Below, in pieces: positions 2,996 through 56,663 of a DNA stretch of 64,000 nucleotides. The position numbers and the translations under genes are program-made. The notes beneath the pieces are model-generated. The model was not told where the DNA came from, did not search any database, and was given only the letters and a program-made list of their open reading frames with translations. Numbering within the stretch: position 1 is the stretch's first letter; every line of letters starts with the position of its first letter. Source of the stretch: a virus (taxonomy: Duplodnaviria > Heunggongvirae > Uroviricota > Caudoviricetes); IMG/VR virus record IMGVR_UViG_3300029288_000059, positions 225,237 to 289,236 of that record; one strand, given 5' to 3'.

Positions 2996-3355
2996 TTACT
3001 CATTAAAGTGACGATTTAATTCCTTATAAAGTTCTAACATGGAAGCCGTTAAATCTAACTCTTTCATATTAACCGAACCGAGATTGGTATGAATAATTAC
3101 CCCATCAGGAGTAACACTTCCAAATCCATATGATACTGTTTTATTTTCTTTTACTGGCGGGGATTGTGGTTTAATATTTAATTTTACATACCCTTCATCC
3201 GCATTTTCTAACATATAGTCACGTTCACCATTCATAATACGATAAACAGTACGGCGTGATAATTTTGTAGATTTAATAATTGATTCAACGTTTTGTTTTT
3301 TCTGTTCAGCTAAAAACTTAACTGTTTTAATTTGTTCGATTGTTAATCTCGTCAT
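2996..3355 (-). CDS. Protein with a helix-turn-helix domain. It is a paralog of the 63030..63425 product.
   Basis: The N-terminal segment IKSTKLSRRTVYRIMNGERDY looks like an HTH. The motifs GERDY and TNLGSV/TNLGTV are shared with the paralog. Confidence 0.45.
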   Translation of the reverse strand: MTRLTIEQIKTVKFLAEQKKQNVESIIKSTKLSRRTVYRIMNGERDYMLENADEGYVKLNIKPQSPPVKENKTVSYGFGSVTPDGVIIHTNLGSVNMKELDLTASMLELYKELNRHFNE

Positions 3356-3900
3356 CGTTATTCTCCATTGTTAAACATCATATTAATAATTATAGTATAA
3401 TATGATTATTGTTTATGTCAACAAGCAATCAGTACCAAATCTTCTTCGGTATGAACTAATTCATCCAACTCGTTGGAATCACTCCAACCACTGTATATAA
3501 TATCCAATAGGCCAAACTCATTTATATTACCACATACTTTAAATTCTAGTGGGTCTTCATCGTCCATAATTAAAAAATAACTTACTTCAAATTTTCTTTG
3601 TTCTTGACTAATAACGGCTTCATCAAATGTCAACTGACTACTATTAACACCACCACGTTTCATCTCACGTTTAACTAATGCGTGTAGGATGGGTTCATTA
3701 TATTCAAATTGTATGTTGTCATCTAAATATGCAACGAATGATGAACTTTCGCGTTTCACGTATTCCGTCATGTTATATGTCCTTGTTTGAGTTAATGTCC
3801 TTAACAATTATTTGTTATAATATAAAAAATATGTTAAGTCAATACTTGTTATTAAATTATTTTATGTTATACTACAATTATAAACATTAGGGGATATGAC

Positions 3901-4791
3901 ATGAACTCAAGTATCACAAGTACGAGTAATCAACTGTTTAGAGATGGTAAATGGATACAACCAAAAAACTTTACTAATGAGCAAAATACTGATATTCGTA
4001 TTAAAGAATATTGGCATAGTGACATTATATCCCATGATATAAATTGTAAAAAACTAACCATTGACTTGGTAAATAATAGTGATACAAATGGTGATATAAA
4101 CAGTAAAGACAATGTCTGTCTCATAATACATACAGAAAATAAAAGTCTTAGCAAACGCAATGGAATTATTAAATCACGTCGAGTCACATTATCCGGTAGT
4201 GGGGCATTCCAATGTACGGGCATCGTTGCAAATGAAGTTATAATCGAAGAAGGTATTATTCTCAAAAATACCCCCATTACCTGTAAACGACTTCTTATAA
4301 CAATGAATAAATCAACCAATTTATACGAAATATTATCAAATACAAATACAACAACAGTAACTATGACATTATCACGTCCTTATTTACCATTAGGGCAAAC
4401 ACAACATACTACTTGTCCACCGATAATCATTAACAAAATTGACAATCTTATAATTACTAATCAACTCCCTACGAAAGATAGTCAATATGATTTAATAATA
4501 CAAAACTGTAAAAACGTATCATTGAGAACAGTATTTACTTCATCTGTTGATATTAATAACTGTAAAACAGTCACAATTCTAAACTCTAACATACAACAAT
4601 ATAACCGATTAAACGTTGAAGAATTAACAATAAACAACAGCCCCATTAATGAACTTGGTGAATTAGTATGTAAAAAGATTACTATTGAAAAATCATATAT
4701 TTGTGGTGAGGCATTAGAGATGATTAGCAAGTATACTGATGAATTATATTACAATCCGTTTGACTTCGAAGATAATCTAATATCAGTCTAA
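3901..4791 (+). CDS. Hypothetical protein, 296 aa. Its C-terminus (YYNPFDFEDNLISV) is paralogous to that of the next gene.
   Basis: Long ORF. An RBS-like GGGGATATGACATG context lies upstream. Confidence 0.45.
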   Translation: MNSSITSTSNQLFRDGKWIQPKNFTNEQNTDIRIKEYWHSDIISHDINCKKLTIDLVNNSDTNGDINSKDNVCLIIHTENKSLSKRNGIIKSRRVTLSGSGAFQCTGIVANEVIIEEGIILKNTPITCKRLLITMNKSTNLYEILSNTNTTTVTMTLSRPYLPLGQTQHTTCPPIIINKIDNLIITNQLPTKDSQYDLIIQNCKNVSLRTVFTSSVDINNCKTVTILNSNIQQYNRLNVEELTINNSPINELGELVCKKITIEKSYICGEALEMISKYTDELYYNPFDFEDNLISV

Positions 4792-4811
4792 ATAACATAA
4801 GGATACTTAAT

Positions 4812-5402
4812 ATGCAAGCACATTACAACGGTCTCAATTACGGCTATCAAAGAGAAGTGGTGTTGCTTCGTGAGTCGGATGTAAATGGAGGTATTATTGA
4901 TATTTCCAACTATGATACCGTAACAGTAACTAATTGGAGTGAAAGAGAGGATATACCATCACCCGACAATACCACTAAGGATTTATATATTATCGTTTGT
5001 GAAGACCAAGGCAGTCCGGGGACAGTACAAGAACAAATATCACTCCCAATAAGTTTTAATAACATAACAACTGTTAATATAATTAATGGTTGGTTCTGCC
5101 CATTTAAGATATGTGGTGATATTGAATTTAATAATTGTAGTAATATAACGTTCACGAGCGTAGGTATACATAATGGGGTTATACATAATGCATCAACAGT
5201 TACTATTAAATGTTCACGTATTAGACATGGGTTTAAAATATCAACCAATAAGTTAATAGTCGATGGTTGTGGAATGAACGCACAAAACATGAGTGAACTT
5301 AAATGTAAATCATTAGAAATAAAGAATTGTACATTGGATGAAAAAACTATATCGGAAATTCACCAACTCGAACTAGAAGAATTCTATTATGCCCCCATTT
5401 AA
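4812..5402 (+). CDS. Hypothetical protein, paralog of 3901..4791. The C-terminus appears truncated by a +1 frameshift at a C5 run (5392-5396).
   Basis: The ORF ends ...EFYYAPI*. One frame over, PFNFEDTVITV* follows (to 5430), matching the C-terminus of the upstream paralog. Confidence 0.45.
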   Translation: MQAHYNGLNYGYQREVVLLRESDVNGGIIDISNYDTVTVTNWSEREDIPSPDNTTKDLYIIVCEDQGSPGTVQEQISLPISFNNITTVNIINGWFCPFKICGDIEFNNCSNITFTSVGIHNGVIHNASTVTIKCSRIRHGFKISTNKLIVDGCGMNAQNMSELKCKSLEIKNCTLDEKTISEIHQLELEEFYYAPI

Positions 5403-5481
5403 TTTTGAAGATACCGTAATAACAGTCTAAACAATCTCCATATTAAATTATATAAATATACGTGTATTATGGAGGTTCAAC

Positions 5482-5646
5482 ATGGAAACATCTAAAATCT
5501 TTCGAGAAGGGTATATGGCATATACTTGTGGTTTAAATTATAACGACAATCCATATAATCAAAAAGAACAACCATCATTATATAAAGAATGGAAATCTGG
5601 GTGGAAAGCCTGTAAATTTGATGAAGAACATTTGGTGCTAGTATGA
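5482..5646 (+). CDS. Ribosome modulation factor (Rmf)-like small protein, 54 aa. It is absent from the ORF track.
   Basis: GGAGG lies 7 nt upstream. The segment GYMAYTCGLNYNDNPY has the same spacing as E. coli Rmf GYQAGIAGRSKEMCPY, followed by W..GW. An ATGA overlap links it to the next gene. Confidence 0.4.
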   Translation: METSKIFREGYMAYTCGLNYNDNPYNQKEQPSLYKEWKSGWKACKFDEEHLVLV

Positions 5647-6149
5647 AATTAGATGATTTAGAAATAATAGAAGAAACAACTGATGTATCCAAACGTTATT
5701 GGTACAATACAAAAACCAATACATTTATAAAAGTGAATGGGTTACATCATTTATACGATGTATTCGCCCGTCCATCACGTTTTGGAACGACAGAACAAGA
5801 ATTGCATACTAAGTTTCCAAAGGCAGAAACTCGTTATGAAATGGGTAGACCATTATACGATATAGACATGCTTAACTGGATGTTTAAACGTGGTTATGTA
5901 AGAGTTGCGATGATAGATGATGAAGTAACTGTTGAATATAATAATCTACTGATTGCTAAATCGGTTGCAATCATTATTTGTAATAAAGTTAAAATAACAG
6001 ATTTGATTATTAGTGTTCGTGACCCTGAAAGTGATGCGGAAGGTGATGTAGTCGATAAAGAATTCACAACACCCGAATCAATCGCTAAATACTTAGGCTT
6101 AAAAGCACCATTAAAAGAATGTAGACATTTAACAATTAGAACTTATTAA
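5643..6149 (+). CDS. Hypothetical protein.
   Basis: ORF of 168 aa, translationally coupled to the upstream mini-ORF. Confidence 0.45.
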   Translation: MKLDDLEIIEETTDVSKRYWYNTKTNTFIKVNGLHHLYDVFARPSRFGTTEQELHTKFPKAETRYEMGRPLYDIDMLNWMFKRGYVRVAMIDDEVTVEYNNLLIAKSVAIIICNKVKITDLIISVRDPESDAEGDVVDKEFTTPESIAKYLGLKAPLKECRHLTIRTY

Positions 6150-6427
6150 TTATTAATGAATAACGCATCAATATCATGTTCTAATGATTGAATAGTATAT
6201 TTAATATTATCAATCTGTTCAATCATAGAACTAAATGGACGAGCGGGTATTAATTCATTAGCAATAGTATATTCATTTACTTTTTCTGAGAATACATCTA
6301 ATTCACCTTTAAGCATATCAAGATGTTGAACAATAGTATTGTTATATCGTTCTTTTAATTCATCATCAATAACGTTATTTTCTAATAACTTTAATGAATC
6401 ATATAAACTTCTTAAACTATTACTCAT
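6146..6427 (-). CDS. Small helical protein, member of the 'LKLLE' leader family (MSNSLRSLYDSLKLLENN).
   Basis: Part of a tandem array of paralogs. The conserved N-terminal leader ends in LLE. Confidence 0.5.
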   Translation of the reverse strand: MSNSLRSLYDSLKLLENNVIDDELKERYNNTIVQHLDMLKGELDVFSEKVNEYTIANELIPARPFSSMIEQIDNIKYTIQSLEHDIDALFINN

Positions 6428-6444
6428 TGTATAATCCTCTTATA

Positions 6445-6699
6445 TTAATTCCCGAATAACTCAGGATGAACTCTTCTAGCTAACCGTGACATAACCTGTC
6501 GTTGTAATATATGAATATGTTGTGTGAATTCGTCATTATCTTGTGGGTGTTGTTCAGGTAAAGATATAAACTCATTATACGCATCAATTAAATGATTTAA
6601 TATAGTTTGTTCCTCAGTTGTTAATCCAATTGAGTTGTCATTACTGTTGCCCTCTAGTAATTTCAAAGAATGACATAAATCCTTTAAACTGTTGTCCAT
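6445..6699 (-). CDS. Small protein of the 'LKLLE' leader family (MDNSLKDLCHSLKLLEGNSNDN).
   Basis: Tandem paralog. Confidence 0.5.
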   Translation of the reverse strand: MDNSLKDLCHSLKLLEGNSNDNSIGLTTEEQTILNHLIDAYNEFISLPEQHPQDNDEFTQHIHILQRQVMSRLARRVHPELFGN

Positions 6700-6715
6700 T
6701 ACAAATATTCCTTAT

Positions 6716-6973
6716 TTACCAACCATATCTACTGAGTTCTATATAGGCGTTATTTAGTCCATTGGATATAATATTAAAATCAACTAATGTATGTAATGTA
6801 TCCTTAGGTCGTTTCATACTTTCCAACCTAGCTTTTATATCTACACTTTTAGCTATAAGATCATCGATTTGTTTATTAATTTTATCGGGGTTTGGGCTAG
6901 TAGTATTATTAGAATCACCTTCTAATAATTTAAGTGCTTCATTGCATTGTTTCATTATGTTATCATTACTCAT
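6716..6973 (-). CDS. Small protein of the 'MKQCNEALKLLEG' leader family.
   Basis: The N-terminal 20 codons are nearly identical at the DNA level to copies at 7211-7272 and 7561-7618. Confidence 0.5.
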   Translation of the reverse strand: MSNDNIMKQCNEALKLLEGDSNNTTSPNPDKINKQIDDLIAKSVDIKARLESMKRPKDTLHTLVDFNIISNGLNNAYIELSRYGW

Positions 6974-6984
6974 CTTAATAATCC

Positions 6985-7272
6985 TTATATAACCATAGAG
7001 TTCAATTCGTTAGCAATATCACTTAATGCTTCTTCTAAGTCATCACGACATTTCTTAATTGTATTAATATCACCAATACCGTTTGCAATATCATTATCAC
7101 AACTATTTAAAAAACGAGTGGCATCTTTAAATGATTTTTGTAATGTTTCAATTACGTGTCTTGTCATATCGGGAGTAACAATGCCGATACTTTTGTACTG
7201 TTCATCATTAGATTCACCTTCTAATAATCTAAGTGCTTCATTACATTGTTTCATTATGTTATCTTCACTCAT
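6985..7272 (-). CDS. Small protein of the 'MKQCNEALRLLEG' leader family. The start was corrected to the internal Met at 7272.
   Basis: AAGGAA lies 9 nt upstream of the MSEDNIMKQ start. The longer ORF beginning at 7347 lacks the family leader at its start. Confidence 0.45.
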   Translation of the reverse strand: MSEDNIMKQCNEALRLLEGESNDEQYKSIGIVTPDMTRHVIETLQKSFKDATRFLNSCDNDIANGIGDINTIKKCRDDLEEALSDIANELNSMVI

Positions 7273-7285
7273 TTTAATATTTCCT

Positions 7286-7936
7286 TTATATGTTACTATG
7301 TCTGTATGGTTCCAATAAATCACGTACCGCTTCAGTTTCATCTTCACGGTCTAATGCACTACTTAATATGTCGACCGGATGTTGCAATTTTTGGAATTCT
7401 GAGTCATCACCATCACGCCATGCTTTATCCATATACTTGTTTCGTCTCATGTTACATATCTGCAATAATTTAAATGCATTATCATATGCTGTATTTAAGT
7501 CTTTAACAGCTTGTTCTACCTCTACATCGGATGGACCACCATATACTTCACTAGTGTCGCTTTCCAATAATTTAAGTGCTTCATTGCATTGTTTCATTAC
7601 ATTGTCTTCACTCATTTTAATCTCTCCTACAATATCGTTATAATTATCCATACTAAGTGTTTTATTATCAATTAACAAGTCTAAAATGTTTTCAGTTGCA
7701 GTATGTAAATCCATATCAGTCTTTGCATCTTCTTTAGCAAACTCTAACATTCTAATAAACAATGGTACGTCCATTGATATAATATCCATACCATCTAAAT
7801 CCTCATTCATATGTGATTTAGCAAGATACGCATTATATGCTCGTTCAGCTTTTTCTTTTGAATGATACATACATTGACTATTACCGATACGATATTTACC
7901 GTTACTACATTTAATGACTGGCATTTGAAGCACCAA
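7286..7936 (-). CDS. Either a 216-aa protein or two in-frame genes: 7622..7936, and 7286..7618 as a leader-family member starting MSEDNVMKQCNEALKLLESD.
   Basis: An internal GGAGAG RBS and ATG sit at 7618, where the family leader starts. No stop codon separates the two parts. Confidence 0.4.
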   Translation of the reverse strand: MVLQMPVIKCSNGKYRIGNSQCMYHSKEKAERAYNAYLAKSHMNEDLDGMDIISMDVPLFIRMLEFAKEDAKTDMDLHTATENILDLLIDNKTLSMDNYNDIVGEIKMSEDNVMKQCNEALKLLESDTSEVYGGPSDVEVEQAVKDLNTAYDNAFKLLQICNMRRNKYMDKAWRDGDDSEFQKLQHPVDILSSALDREDETEAVRDLLEPYRHSNI

Positions 7937-8078
7937 CTAATTCTTTTTGTTTTTGATATTCAGTATCAGAATTAGCAATATCCATTAATGTCTTATTTAT
8001 CTGTGTTTGCACATTACGTAAGTCTGATTGTAGTGATTTTAAAAACTCTAGTTGTTCTTTACTCATAGTATAAATCCT

Positions 8079-8420
8079 CTAATCATTGCGTTCAACGAAT
8101 TTAAATATGAAACTATCTAACTTGGTTTGTATATTAACCAATGATTGATTAAGTGACATAATACTATTTTCAATAGTTCTATGTTTATATTCTTGATTTT
8201 CTTTGAGTTCATATTTAGATAATTCATCAAACATATCATCATTATTCTTATCTACGATATTATTAAGTTGGTCTTTCACCTTATTAATATCTTTAGATAA
8301 CTCTTCATGTGAGTGTTCGATTTTCTTATATAGATAAGTAATCGTACCAACAAGTGCGGATGCAACTCCCCCAATTACTGTCATTAACGTATGATTATCT
8401 ATTTCCATATTTAACCTCAC
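8079..8420 (-). CDS. Membrane-anchored coiled-coil protein.
   Basis: An N-terminal hydrophobic helix (LMTVIGGVASALVGTITYLY) is followed by a charged helical region. Confidence 0.4.
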   Translation of the reverse strand: MRLNMEIDNHTLMTVIGGVASALVGTITYLYKKIEHSHEELSKDINKVKDQLNNIVDKNNDDMFDELSKYELKENQEYKHRTIENSIMSLNQSLVNIQTKLDSFIFKFVERND

Positions 8421-8499
8421 TCTATTATAAACTATTTATTATTTTTTTTAATTATTACAACAAGTTTTGACTAAATATACTTAACATAGGAGTAATAAG

Positions 8500-8817
8500 A
8501 TGGAACAGTTAGTAGCATGGAAACAAAGATGGCAAGAAATTACATCATACATATATCTAGCTATATGTTTATTTGATTTTTTAATAATGCCATTCTACTA
8601 CGTTGCAACAAAACCATCAACTAAAGTTGCACTTGAAATGTCATTAAAGTTTGATAGTGATAGTTCACGTATTACGGCGTTTCAAATATTACAAGCAGGT
8701 GAAAAGTGGGACCCCGTTACGACTAAAGATGGAAGTATGTTTCATTTAGCATTCGGTGCGATATTAGGGGCTGCATCATTAACAAAAAAAGAACGAATTA
8801 CTAGACCACAAGTTTAA
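8500..8817 (+). CDS. Small membrane protein.
   Basis: The hydrophobic segment ITSYIYLAICLFDFLIMPFYYVA is present. Confidence 0.4.
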   Translation: MEQLVAWKQRWQEITSYIYLAICLFDFLIMPFYYVATKPSTKVALEMSLKFDSDSSRITAFQILQAGEKWDPVTTKDGSMFHLAFGAILGAASLTKKERITRPQV

Positions 8818-8853: not shown

Positions 8854-9639
8854 ATGTCATACTTAGGTGAAGTTCCAACAGCATTAAAGTCTATATCCGT
8901 CACATCGAATTATACTATATCAAAGAGAGATAATGGATTACTATTGATATGTAATAATTCGAGTGATATAACGCTATCTACTTCAATCGCTATTGCAAAT
9001 CTTAATGGGTTACTATTACAAATATATAATGCTAATACTGGTACTGTTACTTTTGACCCGTATGGTGCAGAATTAGTTGATTCAAATACTTCTATTACTA
9101 TTGTTTCTGGGCAACGAATAATACTATATAGTAATGGTACTAAATGGTGTGAAATATCAGGAATAATCGTTGATTCGACAATTAGTGGGACTAAACTGGT
9201 AGATGGAACGATAACAGGAACAAAACTGGCAGATGGAACGATAACTAATTCTAATATAGCAGACGGCACAATTACACCATCTAAGTTTTCAACCACATAT
9301 CCATTTACTAATTCATTTACATCAACTGCACAAACATTAGAAACATATACTAATTATCCTATTGCACATGGATTGAGTTCAACCCCAAAGTTAATTAACT
9401 CTTATGCCGTATGTATAACCGCTGATGTCAATTTCACGGTTGGTACTAAATTAGAGTTAGGTTCACATCCTGTTAGGATTGAAGGTACAAATTCATATGG
9501 GTATAATGTTACTAGTGACGCTACTAACTTAAATGTTTGTGTTGGTAGGTTTGGTCCAACAACAATAGATAACGGCAATCATAGTCCGGCTGCTTTGGAT
9601 TTAACTAAATGGCAATTCTACTTTCAGGCGTTTGTATAA
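8854..9639 (+). CDS. Tail fiber-like protein with (S/T)GTKL(V/A)DGTIT repeats.
   Basis: The repeats ISGTKLVDGTITGTKLADGTITNSNIADGTITPSKF are typical of phage fiber and collar repeats. Confidence 0.5.
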   Translation: MSYLGEVPTALKSISVTSNYTISKRDNGLLLICNNSSDITLSTSIAIANLNGLLLQIYNANTGTVTFDPYGAELVDSNTSITIVSGQRIILYSNGTKWCEISGIIVDSTISGTKLVDGTITGTKLADGTITNSNIADGTITPSKFSTTYPFTNSFTSTAQTLETYTNYPIAHGLSSTPKLINSYAVCITADVNFTVGTKLELGSHPVRIEGTNSYGYNVTSDATNLNVCVGRFGPTTIDNGNHSPAALDLTKWQFYFQAFV

Positions 9640-53250: not shown

Positions 53251-53258
53251 TATTTATA
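53251..53258 (-). promoter_or_regulatory. T4-type late promoter TATAAATA, about 40 nt upstream of the sheath gene.
   Basis: The reverse complement of tatttata gives TATAAATA. Confidence 0.5.
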
Positions 53259-53333
53259 GATTTAGTTTAATAATGAGGTTCAAATCAGTATTTTTATAAA
53301 TATAACAAATGTTTTTCTTTTGGAGTTTATATC

Positions 53334-53831
53334 ATGTCTAATAATAATTTTGTTAAATTACTTGAATCAAATTTGGAAAAATCCGAAATTGTATTAGCAG
53401 TTCAAAACATTGCAGATGAAATACAAAAGATGATTAAAAAATTAGGTGAAATTAAACTAGAAAACATCTCACCATTATCAGATAGAATTAAAGCGGTATA
53501 TGGTGTTAAGAGTGCCGAACAATTTACATCTTCTATATCAACTAATCTTGCTCAAGCCATCGAACAGTTATCATCAGTACGTGAAGAGATTAATACTAAA
53601 TCATTAGTATTATCGGGTGACGTTGCCGAATCAGATATGGAATCAGATTTAACTGAGCCAAGAGAAGATGAACATACAGATACTATACAACCAGAAGATA
53701 GAATTAGAAAAGAATCATTAGCCTATATATTAGATGGTAAAAAATACAAACGTTTATTTGAAACTGTTGATGAGATGAATCATTTTATTCTAAAGAACAA
53801 AATCACTAAATTTGTTGTAATAAAGGATTAA
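53334..53831 (+). CDS. Hypothetical acidic protein.
   Basis: ORF of 165 aa. Confidence 0.45.
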   Translation: MSNNNFVKLLESNLEKSEIVLAVQNIADEIQKMIKKLGEIKLENISPLSDRIKAVYGVKSAEQFTSSISTNLAQAIEQLSSVREEINTKSLVLSGDVAESDMESDLTEPREDEHTDTIQPEDRIRKESLAYILDGKKYKRLFETVDEMNHFILKNKITKFVVIKD

Positions 53832-54848: not shown

Positions 54849-56663
54849 TCAATGAGTAGCATATATGTACTTACTCTGTCCACAATCATAAATTTTAACA
54901 AAACTTTCATCTAGTTGTTTCCCTATTGAATACTGACGTGGATATCGATTATTAAGATTAGTCCAGTAAAACCCAAGACTACAACTCACATACTCAAACC
55001 CTAATTTGTTATATAAATCACCCGTACCCCATCTATTATCACAGTAACTCACTATTTCTTTTTCATTTGTTTGTTTTAGGAAATGTTTGAATAATTTACT
55101 AGCACCACCTATTACTGATGTACTACTACAAAATCTTAACAATTCAAAATACTTATATCTCTTACCAAATGACATAACTGCTACTAACTTATCATCAAAC
55201 ATCAATCCATAACAATATTGGCTAGATACATACCCTTGAATGTGATTCGTATTAATGAATGACTTTTCTTGCTCAACATCAACCCCAACAATCGTACATT
55301 TACGTGCATATACTTTATTTGATTTTTGTAATATATGTAATAGTCTTTGTTTAACAATATTCTGTTTATAAATCCATTCATCTTCAAATATAGTAATAAG
55401 TCTAATTCCTTTCTCTTTACATAGGTTATGTTTGTTTATGTGATAATTCTTATCCTTTTGTGGGATACTATGCCAATATAATCCACAATATTCTATTGCT
55501 ATATTCATACTAGGGATATAAATGTCTAACTCTAACGGTTTAATTTGTATCCTATCACTTTGAATGACTTCTATATTAACCAGTAGGGATTGGACGTAAT
55601 CATATACTTCGTTCTCGCCGTGACTTCTCATTAATGGATAACAATTATAACAACGTGGTAATTTTCCATCTTCTAAACTGGACATAAACTCATTACCGCA
55701 TTTCTTACATTTAAATGGATGTAAATTATAAACACCAGTATATTCATCTATTGTGAATAAGAAATCAACATTACTACAACGATTCTTTACTTGTTCAAAT
55801 AGTAATGGTTCACTTGTAATACGAACTTTGTTTTTGACTTCATCATTCTGCATTGGATGAATCGTACCATACTTTTCCATATTGGTTAAATTAGACTTGG
55901 ATTTTATACCTTCATTCTGTAATAGACATTCAGTCCCATACTTTTCTAAATTCGTATGTATCTTTTTATTATGTATTGCTTCATTTTGCATTGGATACTC
56001 ACAACCATACTTTACCATATTAGTACGTTTGATTTGTTCCTTGATATCTTCCCGTTGTAAGGAATATTCAACTCCATACTTTTCTATATTGGTTTGTTTA
56101 ATTCGGTCTTTAATTTTATCATTTTGTAATGGCGTATTCGTACCATATTTCGCATTACAGGTACGTTCTACCTTTTCCCTTATAATTGTAGCCTTACTAG
56201 GGTTATCCACGCCATACAACGTTATAAGCGTTTGTTTGCCCTTATCCCTTACTACTTGAGAGCTTAGTGATGATTCAACCCCATAATGTAATAAAGTAGT
56301 TTGTTTCTTTTTCTCTTTAATTGAAATAGATTGACTTGGATTATCCACTCCATATCGTTCTATATTAGTTTGTTTGATTTGTTCCTTAACTTCATCTGAT
56401 TTAAATGGATTATCTACACCATACTTTTTGATATTAGTTAGACGAGTGGATTCTAATACTTGCTCATTAGTTCTCTTTAAGCTATATGCCTTTATATAAC
56501 CACGTACCGTTCCCGTATCCCTTTTATTGAATATAATGCACATTTCCTGTACTGATAATAGTACATCAATGTAAAGATATTTAACATCTTCATATGTAGG
56601 CCATTCTCCATATTTTAATGGATATAAATCATAATCACGACTTAATTTATTTTTATCACACAT
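54849..56663 (-). CDS. Hef-like homing endonuclease, 604 aa, with KYGV repeats and a Vsr-like core.
   Basis: At least nine (K/R)..T..EKYGV.NP.Q repeats are present. The core reads PLELDIYIPSMNIAIEYCGLYWHS. Confidence 0.6.
   Translation of the reverse strand: MCDKNKLSRDYDLYPLKYGEWPTYEDVKYLYIDVLLSVQEMCIIFNKRDTGTVRGYIKAYSLKRTNEQVLESTRLTNIKKYGVDNPFKSDEVKEQIKQTNIERYGVDNPSQSISIKEKKKQTTLLHYGVESSLSSQVVRDKGKQTLITLYGVDNPSKATIIREKVERTCNAKYGTNTPLQNDKIKDRIKQTNIEKYGVEYSLQREDIKEQIKRTNMVKYGCEYPMQNEAIHNKKIHTNLEKYGTECLLQNEGIKSKSNLTNMEKYGTIHPMQNDEVKNKVRITSEPLLFEQVKNRCSNVDFLFTIDEYTGVYNLHPFKCKKCGNEFMSSLEDGKLPRCYNCYPLMRSHGENEVYDYVQSLLVNIEVIQSDRIQIKPLELDIYIPSMNIAIEYCGLYWHSIPQKDKNYHINKHNLCKEKGIRLITIFEDEWIYKQNIVKQRLLHILQKSNKVYARKCTIVGVDVEQEKSFINTNHIQGYVSSQYCYGLMFDDKLVAVMSFGKRYKYFELLRFCSSTSVIGGASKLFKHFLKQTNEKEIVSYCDNRWGTGDLYNKLGFEYVSCSLGFYWTNLNNRYPRQYSIGKQLDESFVKIYDCGQSKYIYATH

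Follow-up and report, generated by a model that had tools for sequence, protein, structure and literature searches.

Why would a phage keep, side by side on one strand, a row of small genes that begin with the same short leader and then run into unrelated sequences? This question is raised by five consecutive genes (g1-g5) in a 64-kb stretch of the IMG/VR record IMGVR_UViG_3300029288_000059, hereafter called the window, by which we mean the whole stretch of DNA that was analysed (64,000 nucleotides). The source is an uncultured RaK2/GAP32-like jumbo myovirus. Its major capsid protein shares 68% identity with the one of Vibrio phage 2.275.O and ~66% with those of GAP32, CBB, Serratia phage BF and other jumbo myoviruses of this kind (~350 kb); a T4-type terminase and a tail sheath are encoded in the window as well, and its G+C content is about 31%. 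The DNA belongs to a contig of 272 kb in the ENA metagenome assembly ERZ27247363; a contig of 290 kb is recorded too. No near DNA match to the window was found among 50,697 phage records, against which positions 5600-8500 gave no megablast match. An earlier note on this DNA had proposed that the leader is a capsid-targeting propeptide mounted on cargo of fast turnover. That proposal gains comparative support from the conservation of protease sites, selection on the LKLLE motif, homology breaks at the leader Glu codon, leaderless homologs of the g2 cargo and a second leader family. The best-supported explanation, which we regard as probable with some reserve, is that the array is a hyperplastic "internal protein" locus whose leader would target proteins to the capsid and be cleaved off, in the style of phage T4.

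The leaders fall into two classes. Those of g3-g5 (class A, 18 residues) follow the pattern MS(N/E)DN(I/V)MKQCNEAL(K/R)LLE, and those of g1 and g2 (class B, 16 residues) the pattern M(S/D)NSL(R/K)(S/D)L(Y/C)(D/H)SLKLLE; all five end in (S/A)L(K/R)LLE. Polar residues come directly after LLE throughout (GDSNN, GESND, SDTSE, GNSND and NNVID among the five genes). Each gene has a separate Shine-Dalgarno (SD) sequence 7-10 nucleotides (nt) 5' of its ATG, that of g1 being AGAGGA, 7 nt upstream of the start. Five to seven leader genes had been counted before; five stand (6146-7615), while the 51-residue (51-aa) open reading frame (ORF) at 7911-8066 and the membrane/coiled-coil protein at 8079-8408 lack the leader. 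Behind the leader, the cargos (67-91 residues) have no significant pairwise similarity in BLASTP, in agreement with the previous description of this part as unrelated or hypervariable. Their isoelectric points are 4.3-5.1 (4.3 in g1), except for g3 (6.8), and the predicted mature sizes are 7.6-10.5 kDa. The ribosome-binding site (RBS) and leader DNA of g3-g5 form a family of 87-nt direct repeats with 75-87% identity, which agree to within a few bases with the near-identical segments recognized earlier (6925-6973, 7211-7272 and 7561-7618). Classes A and B have the peptide motif in common, but not the DNA.

Table 1 Coordinates of the array, of the genes compared with it and of neighbouring features in the window.
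Feature	Position	Strand	Description
g1	6146-6427	-	ORF and translation; class-B leader MSNSLRSLYDSLKLLE (6380-6427), then N; 77-aa acidic helical cargo
g2	6445-6699	-	class-B leader MDNSLKDLCHSLKLLE (6652-6699), then G; 68-aa cargo
g3	6716-6973	-	class-A leader MSNDNIMKQCNEALKLLE (6920-6973), then G; 67-aa cargo
g4	6985-7272	-	class-A leader MSEDNIMKQCNEALRLLE (7219-7272), then G; 77-aa cargo
g5	7286-7615	-	class-A leader MSEDNVMKQCNEALKLLE (7562-7615), then S; 91-aa cargo; own SD AGGAGA and ATG
Direct repeats (RBS and leader of g3-g5)	6905-6991, 7204-7290, 7547-7633		87 nt each
ORF upstream of g5	7616-7924	-	stop-free, in frame with g5; holds the MDVPLFIRMLEFAKEDAKTDMDLH module, preceded by MNE then D
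Candidate promoter region	8409-8499	-	the sole one of the operon 8408->6146; sigma70-like TTAAAA-16-TATAAT and one-mismatch late motif AATAAATA
Prohead protease, gp21-type (Peptidase_S77)	59215-59859	-	Pfam PF03420, E=1e-25; LTE-6 in its own N-terminus
Coiled-coil scaffold in gp22 position	57973-59205	-	between protease and capsid genes; phrog_10922; N-terminus MAEENKELLE, then NS
Major capsid protein, gp23-like	56774-57952	-	Pfam Gp23, E=1.5e-88
RaK2 gp135 homolog (ORF 53334)	53334-53831	+	phrog_14154 "virion structural protein", E=4.5e-18; tblastn matches to RaK2 and GAP32; TATAAATA 32 nt upstream
Late-promoter motif TATAAATA	53251-53302, 60749-60767, 62970-62991, 63990-63997, 5451-5458, 649-656
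ORF with DUF7487 repeats	54849-56663	-	604 aa; directly 3' of the major capsid gene
ORFs flanking the array	8854-9639, 3901-5402	+	include a protein with DGTITxxKLADGTIT repeats matching a tail-fibre PHROG
54-aa ORF	5482-5646	+	sub-threshold likeness to ribosome modulation factor (Pfam RMF, E=1.2e-4, 22.5 bits, cut-off 27.9)

If the leader is a propeptide, its LLE end should be readable by an enzyme of the same phage. The gp21 homolog pointed out in the earlier note was borne out by the Peptidase_S77 match and by 34% identity to T4 gp21 (BLASTP, E=3e-22), with "NHP" and "GVSSRG" of T4 aligning to "DHP" and "GVSSRG". It is presumed to be the enzyme that would cut after LLE. The combination of LLE with a following S, N or G within the first 45 residues occurs in the capsid protein and the scaffold, whose T4 counterparts are gp21 substrates, and also in ORF 53334. 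In the capsid protein, LLE is present at residues 5-7 (N-terminus MADMLLE, then S), 33-35 and 41-43; the last of these, YLLE43 followed by SATMG, is the predicted maturation site, and in the alignment with T4 gp23 it lies 9 residues ahead of the conserved core. At this site (a slash follows the Glu of the motif) the window has LLE/SAT, 2.275.O LME/SAT, GAP32 LRE/SAT and T4 gp23 FLTE/AEIGG; at the scaffold N-terminus the four read ELLE/NS, LLKE/SN, FLNE/SS and LIAE/A (T4 gp22), and at the protease N-terminus LTE, IRE, IRE and, in T4 gp21, LIE-9 (T4 sites, including LIE-9, from PMC9026906). The fourth protein, ORF 53334, has a short leader, MSNNNFVKLLE followed by SNLEK, which aligns with INE/SNIEK in RaK2 and LTE/SNIEK in GAP32; RaK2 gp135 was seen in virions by mass spectrometry with 36% coverage. 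Because (L/I)-x-E is kept in register at the capsid, scaffold, protease and gp135-like sites, the T4-type specificity of the protease is very likely retained in the RaK2-like clade, as far as aligned sites can tell. Cleavage-site data for RaK2-like phages were not found in the literature on RaK2, phiKp24 and phAPEC6.

It could be argued that the leader is conserved as nucleic acid only, i.e., that a mobile cassette for translation initiation or recombination, consisting of an RBS and the first codons, captures genes while the peptide itself has no role. The repeat does include the RBS at 75-87% DNA identity, and the recombination breakpoints described below map to it. One paper on T4-type phages reportedly describes regulatory cassettes that mediate modular shuffling. 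However, the SLKLLE codons of g1 and g2 have five synonymous and no non-synonymous differences over six codons; the constancy of SLKLLE despite these changes, together with the unlike DNA of classes A and B, argues against conservation of a purely nucleic-acid kind. The codon comparison thus shows LKLLE to be under constraint at the protein level. In a relative described below (L012), moreover, the N-terminal module has unrelated DNA and the hydrophobic-hydrophobic-Glu junction is still kept. We therefore consider a role restricted to nucleic acid very unlikely.

Relatives of the locus indicate how the cargos are exchanged. A 6-kb contig from the Joint Genome Institute (JGI), L002, matches the window at 91% identity between 11025 and 7562; the latter position is the last base of the Glu codon in the g5 leader, and there the homology ends. 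Beyond this codon L002 runs directly into the g4 cargo (its counterpart in L002, the C-terminal part of P0002, is 79% identical), the g5 cargo being absent; behind the next leader comes a novel cargo of 150 aa, followed by a 243-aa gene that has no leader, and the g3 and g2 cargos are absent as well. Orthologs of the g1 cargo were found in L012, L013 and L014. In L013 and L014 the ortholog is preceded by a class-B leader (…SLKLLE, then DNEIEDE), and the gene upstream is different. The g1 cargos of L012 and L013 have 97% nucleotide identity, and this homology starts at the GAA Glu codon; upstream of it L012 carries an unrelated, longer N-terminal module that ends in …HREFIE before DNEIEDE, with FIE/D in place of LLE/D. 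The hydrophobic-hydrophobic-Glu junction was thus retained in L012 although the N-terminal module was replaced. As homology breaks at the Glu codon in three independent comparisons, the predicted cleavage site coincides with the module boundary, and comparison of the relatives shows leader and cargo to be separable modules of these genes. L002, L012 and L013 all differ from the window in the content of this locus, which answers a comparison across related phages that had been proposed for this array, and the L002 breakpoint supports recombination at the leader repeats.

The same process may have affected g5. Since the ORF upstream of g5 has no stop codon and is in frame with it, a 212-aa product (7286-7924, minus strand) is also possible, and the gene caller of the source record called it as a gene. 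An in-frame fusion is also present in L002 (3995-4591), there joined to a g4-type cargo. The presence of the same in-frame fusion in the window and in L002 suggests that leader-leader recombination keeps frames open and can create polyprotein-like ORFs. The AlphaFold2 (AF2) model of the 212-aa ORF has a leader helix at 106-121 followed by coil at 122-132. The upstream part contains a module of ~55 residues, MDVPLFIRMLEFAKEDAKTDMDLH..DNYNDIVG, for which no Pfam family was found; it has 228 homologs, is present in more than 200 metagenomic phage proteins with many partner domains, and is often preceded by L-N-E or L-T-E. Traced from its homolog P0014, the same module turned out to be one cargo of a second leader family, described below, in contig L015. 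In tblastn of the 212-aa ORF against the 50,697 phage records, LR756501 and LR756503 (a 735-kb uncultured phage) were the only matches, to the upstream module alone, and Foldseek of the model against BFVD returned only uncharacterised proteins of uncultured phages.

What, then, are the cargos? The cargo of g2 belongs to a widespread family of ~60-aa helical hairpins (phrog_13916, E=2.6e-15, residues 23-82, profile positions 3-62 of 67) with the consensus LT..E..L..A.N.F..LP.QHP.D..EF...IH.LQ..M.R.ARR.HPE.F. Nearly all matches to its 866 representatives at E<=0.001 begin at query residue ~18-26, i.e., without the leader, and the relatives of this cargo (residues ~24-84) are mostly stand-alone proteins of 60-90 aa. 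Members also occur in siphoviruses and in other phages that lack an S77 protease, where they lie among replication genes or in unrelated surroundings. In the AF2 model of g2, a weakly predicted leader helix (4-13) and a linker that holds LLE/G (14-27) precede the hairpin (28-77), for which the predicted local distance difference test score (pLDDT) exceeds 90; in both this model and that of the 212-aa ORF the leader is a separate helix, and LLE opens a linker of low confidence that leads into the folded cargo. No PDB structure matched the g2 model in Foldseek at E<=0.001. The label "DNA ligase" attached to this family in PHROG 13916 and several GenBank phage records has no Pfam or PDB support and seems to be an annotation error. 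Outside the g2 family, searches of the cargos against PADLOC, Pfam, PHROGs and PDB sequences returned nothing significant. A likeness of g1 to Csm2, the small subunit of type III-A CRISPR systems, was set aside (Pfam E=0.0019, 19.4 bits against a cut-off of 24.8; PADLOC E=0.0046) as probable noise of helical composition.

These features bear on two other ways of explaining the array. The proteins might be targeted to the prohead and cleaved but serve there as disposable core or scaffold accessories or as DNA-spacing fillers in the manner of gp67, gp68 and the internal peptides of T4, rather than as injected effectors; the likeness of the leader to the N-terminus of the scaffold and the small size, acidity and helical nature of the cargos would fit this, and no similarity to anti-defence or defence-related families was found. 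Structural fillers, however, would not be expected to differ as sharply in cargo content as relatives at 91% DNA identity do, and the occurrence of the g2 family in phages without S77 proteases also speaks against such a function, which we judge to be decidedly unlikely. Alternatively, the genes might specify precursors of a secreted or bacteriocin-like kind, from which an export peptidase strips the leader. The shortness of the leader and the G, S or N behind it would be compatible with this, and weak, sub-threshold matches to bacteriocin leaders were obtained, although for a neighbouring protein only. On the other hand, the leaders have no double-glycine motif (no GG follows them), no hydrophobic signal segment and no lipobox; no match to an ABC transporter or C39 peptidase was found among the window proteins scanned against Pfam, and the cargos are folded helical proteins of 70-150 aa. 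This possibility is disfavoured, and we regard it as extremely improbable.

Support for the internal-protein explanation also comes from the second, unrelated leader family. In L015, a 41.6-kb contig, genes for a T4-type portal and an S77 protease are flanked by at least seven genes (3032-7984) that start with a leader MKKSELRQxIREE..KL(N/T)E and continue with an unrelated cargo in each case. A degenerate DNA pattern for this leader matched 63 IMG/VR stretches (L018-L080), with up to six copies per locus. Together with L015, these stretches hold 121 distinct proteins of at least 45 aa headed by the leader, whose median length is 19 residues, and in 108 of the 121 there is a further site downstream of the leader's own IRE (LNE in 31, LKE in 18, LTE in 9, and others). 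The cargos are highly diverse, as the 113 of sufficient length form 99 clusters. Half of the loci (32 of 64) contain T4-type protease, portal, capsid, terminase or sheath genes, and at the maturation position their capsid proteins read …QLI(D/R)E followed by (S/A)S…. The literature searched yielded no description of this family, tblastn of the 20-aa leader gave no match in cultured phages, and no such array lies near the protease of Microcystis phage Mel-JY01, which among cultured phages is the nearest to that of L015. Both arrays have a short leader ending in L/I-x-E (~19 residues in the MKKSELRQ family), hyperdiverse small cargo, several copies and a host phage with an S77 protease, but the leader sequences are unrelated, and the MKKSELRQ arrays often lie inside the head module beside the protease and are far more widespread. 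The existence of an unrelated family in S77-protease phages shows that the design of leader, (L/I)-x-E and variable cargo recurs, and suggests, as far as these sequences go, that the principle extends well beyond the T-even phages.

Taken together, these observations can be arranged into a mechanism, of which we infer scaffold docking, cleavage, retention in the head, injection and effector function. During prohead assembly the short amphipathic leader (16 or 18 residues) would dock the protein onto the gp22-like scaffolding core. The leader ends in L-L-E, which would serve as a (L/I)-x-E site of the gp21-type protease and has a flexible polar linker after it, and once the shell is assembled the protease would cut behind the Glu. 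The leader peptide would then leave, and the small mature cargo, mostly acidic and helical, would stay in the head with the DNA, presumably to be delivered to the next host cell. Homologous recombination between leaders would add, delete and swap cargo cassettes with frames intact: because the leaders are in one frame and nearly identical in DNA, cassettes can be exchanged without broken reading frames, and such recombination would account both for the cargo differences among close relatives and for the joining of g5 to the upstream gene in one frame. By analogy with T4, one may speculate that the cargos act as anti-restriction or anti-defence effectors.

Several observations weigh against this mechanism. 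The (L/I)-x-E motif is short and frequent by chance, and the array lies ~50 kb from the head-gene module. The cargos here are acidic, unlike the internal proteins of T4, for which a basic character is described (PMC9026906). Within the 212-aa fusion, the leader of g5 would be internal, while the tested capsid-targeting sequences of T4 are N-terminal. Transcription signals also differ from what is seen elsewhere in the window. The T4 late-promoter motif TATAAATA is under-represented there (11 copies against ~27 expected), with intergenic copies 24-57 nt upstream of the sheath gene and of ORFs 53334, 59873, 63501 and 5482; being rare yet mostly just upstream of structural genes, it suggests that this RaK2-like phage uses T4-type late transcription. 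No exact TATAAATA is present upstream of the array operon, although the motif marks other structural genes in the window, and in the candidate promoter region neither site is above background, one-mismatch late motifs occurring at 2.8 per kb per strand. Furthermore, an array with the leader of the window was not found in cultured relatives such as GAP32 and 2.275.O; no comparable array was present in the syntenic region of GAP32 or in the capsid-gene neighbourhoods of 2.275.O and GAP32. Searches of metagenomes added little: degenerate patterns of the leader DNA had no matches in IMG/VR and JGI metagenome contigs, but the JGI scan missed L002 too, so the collection is incomplete. A 47-residue profile yielded five candidates and no match and the g2 search found itself alone, both weak negatives as the word index is insensitive for short queries, and scans with flanking proteins, limited by search sensitivity, found no relatives.

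Some of these points would fit cytoplasmic host-takeover proteins that are never packaged, in which the common N-terminal helix binds one shared host or phage partner and LLE is a coincidence; such proteins would be compatible with an upstream sigma70-like promoter whose TATAAT is perfect, with the lack of an exact late promoter, with a locus distant from the head module, and with the commonness of short L-x-E motifs. Coincidence would hardly account, however, for the unrelated N-terminal module of L012 that keeps hydrophobic-hydrophobic-Glu at the junction, for the recurrence of LLE before S or N in the capsid protein, the scaffold and the gp135-like protein, for the flexible polar linker after LLE in every copy, or for the analogous array directly beside the protease gene in L015. 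We consider a purely cytoplasmic role unlikely, and the packaged, cleaved internal proteins remain our preferred explanation.

Some neighbouring genes are recorded here in their own right. Beside the array, the flanking segments include the repeat protein listed in Table 1 and two further ORFs of repetitive sequence without a family match. The 54-aa ORF that resembles ribosome modulation factor below threshold has the TATAAATA motif 24 nt upstream and is kept in L012-L014. In the head module, the ORF with DUF7487 repeats has no counterpart immediately 3' of the capsid gene in 2.275.O or GAP32, and it may be a mobile or homing-endonuclease-like insertion.

How far the principle extends is a wider question. 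We put forward tentatively, as a serious possibility that still falls short of being probable, that lineage-specific leaders ending in (L/I)-x-E are a general and largely unrecognised feature of phages with a gp21/S77 protease, well outside the T-even group too, and that each marks small cargo proteins, drawn from a recombining set with no fixed limit, to be encapsidated and injected. The MS(N/E)DNIMKQCNEALKLLE family of the window and the MKKSELRQxIREE..LNE family would then be two instances of it, and the MDVPLFIRMLEYAKEDAKTDMDLH module and the g2 hairpin domain would be injected cargo. Proteins injected with the phage DNA act ahead of any phage gene expression, and those of T4 inhibit host restriction systems (PMC12373910); leader-plus-cargo logic has so far been documented mainly in T-even phages. 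If the generalization is right, sequence could directly reveal which effectors uncultured phages package, and metagenomes could be searched with a simple mining rule for candidate injected effectors (a shared N-terminal leader, (L/I)-x-E, unrelated cargo and a genome with an S77 protease). The leaders would also offer new targeting tags for loading foreign proteins into large capsids, and in-frame leader repeats would explain how effector cassettes are swapped so quickly in phages.

The capsid-targeting sequence (CTS) of T4, MKTYQEFIAE, is unrelated in sequence to the array leaders. No homology of the array to T4 internal proteins (Ip) or to the CTS was detected: Pfam and PHROG gave no internal-protein match, and tblastn of g2 and the 212-aa ORF against the 50,697 phage records did not return T4. 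The likeness is one of design. IPI, IPII and IPIII of T4 (and Alt), like the array genes, carry a short N-terminal leader ending in (L/I)-x-E on otherwise unrelated small proteins; both phages have a gp21/S77 protease, a scaffold in the gp22 position and a gp23-type capsid protein, and the genes stand in tandem. The T4 CTS, of 10 residues, binds the scaffolding core and is removed by gp21 (PMC9026906), whereas the array leaders have 16-18 residues in two classes. The predicted mature cargos, at 7.6-10.5 kDa, are similar in size to T4 IPI* with its 76 residues (PMC9026906, PMC12373910, PMC5694885). In T4 Ip1-3 the N-terminal leader is the only part in common and directs packaging, and the genes lie in hotspots (PMC12373910, PMC3012670); each Ip inhibits a specific GmrSD restriction enzyme (PMC12373910). 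Unlike the T4 genes, the array belongs to a RaK2-like jumbo phage of ~270-290 kb and has one leader internal to a fusion ORF. Within its own clade, coliphage 121Q gave a bubblegram signal that indicates internal proteins (PMC7247149).

The phiKZ-type phages offer a second comparison. phiKZ, 201phi2-1 and SPN3US resemble the phage studied here in their giant size, in a protease related to gp21 that cuts, or here would cut, after Glu, and in families of head proteins, here putative, with conserved N-termini; gp53 and gp54 of SPN3US, for example, are identical over their first 15 residues (PMC5694885). In these phages the motif is (S/A/G)-x-E, the propeptides often exceed 100 residues and the paralogs are large, whereas the array has L-x-E, short leaders and unrelated cargos. 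The closest parallel to the turnover of the cargos is provided by the polymorphic ip loci of T-even phages, at which related phages have different leader-bearing genes at the same hotspot (Repoila et al. 1994, as cited in PMC3012670 and PMC12373910). As far as the citing papers describe them, these loci resemble the array in having variable cargo at one locus behind a conserved leader. Set against that description, the array has breakpoints that map to the Glu codon of the leader, and recombination between leaders that appears to have made in-frame fusions.

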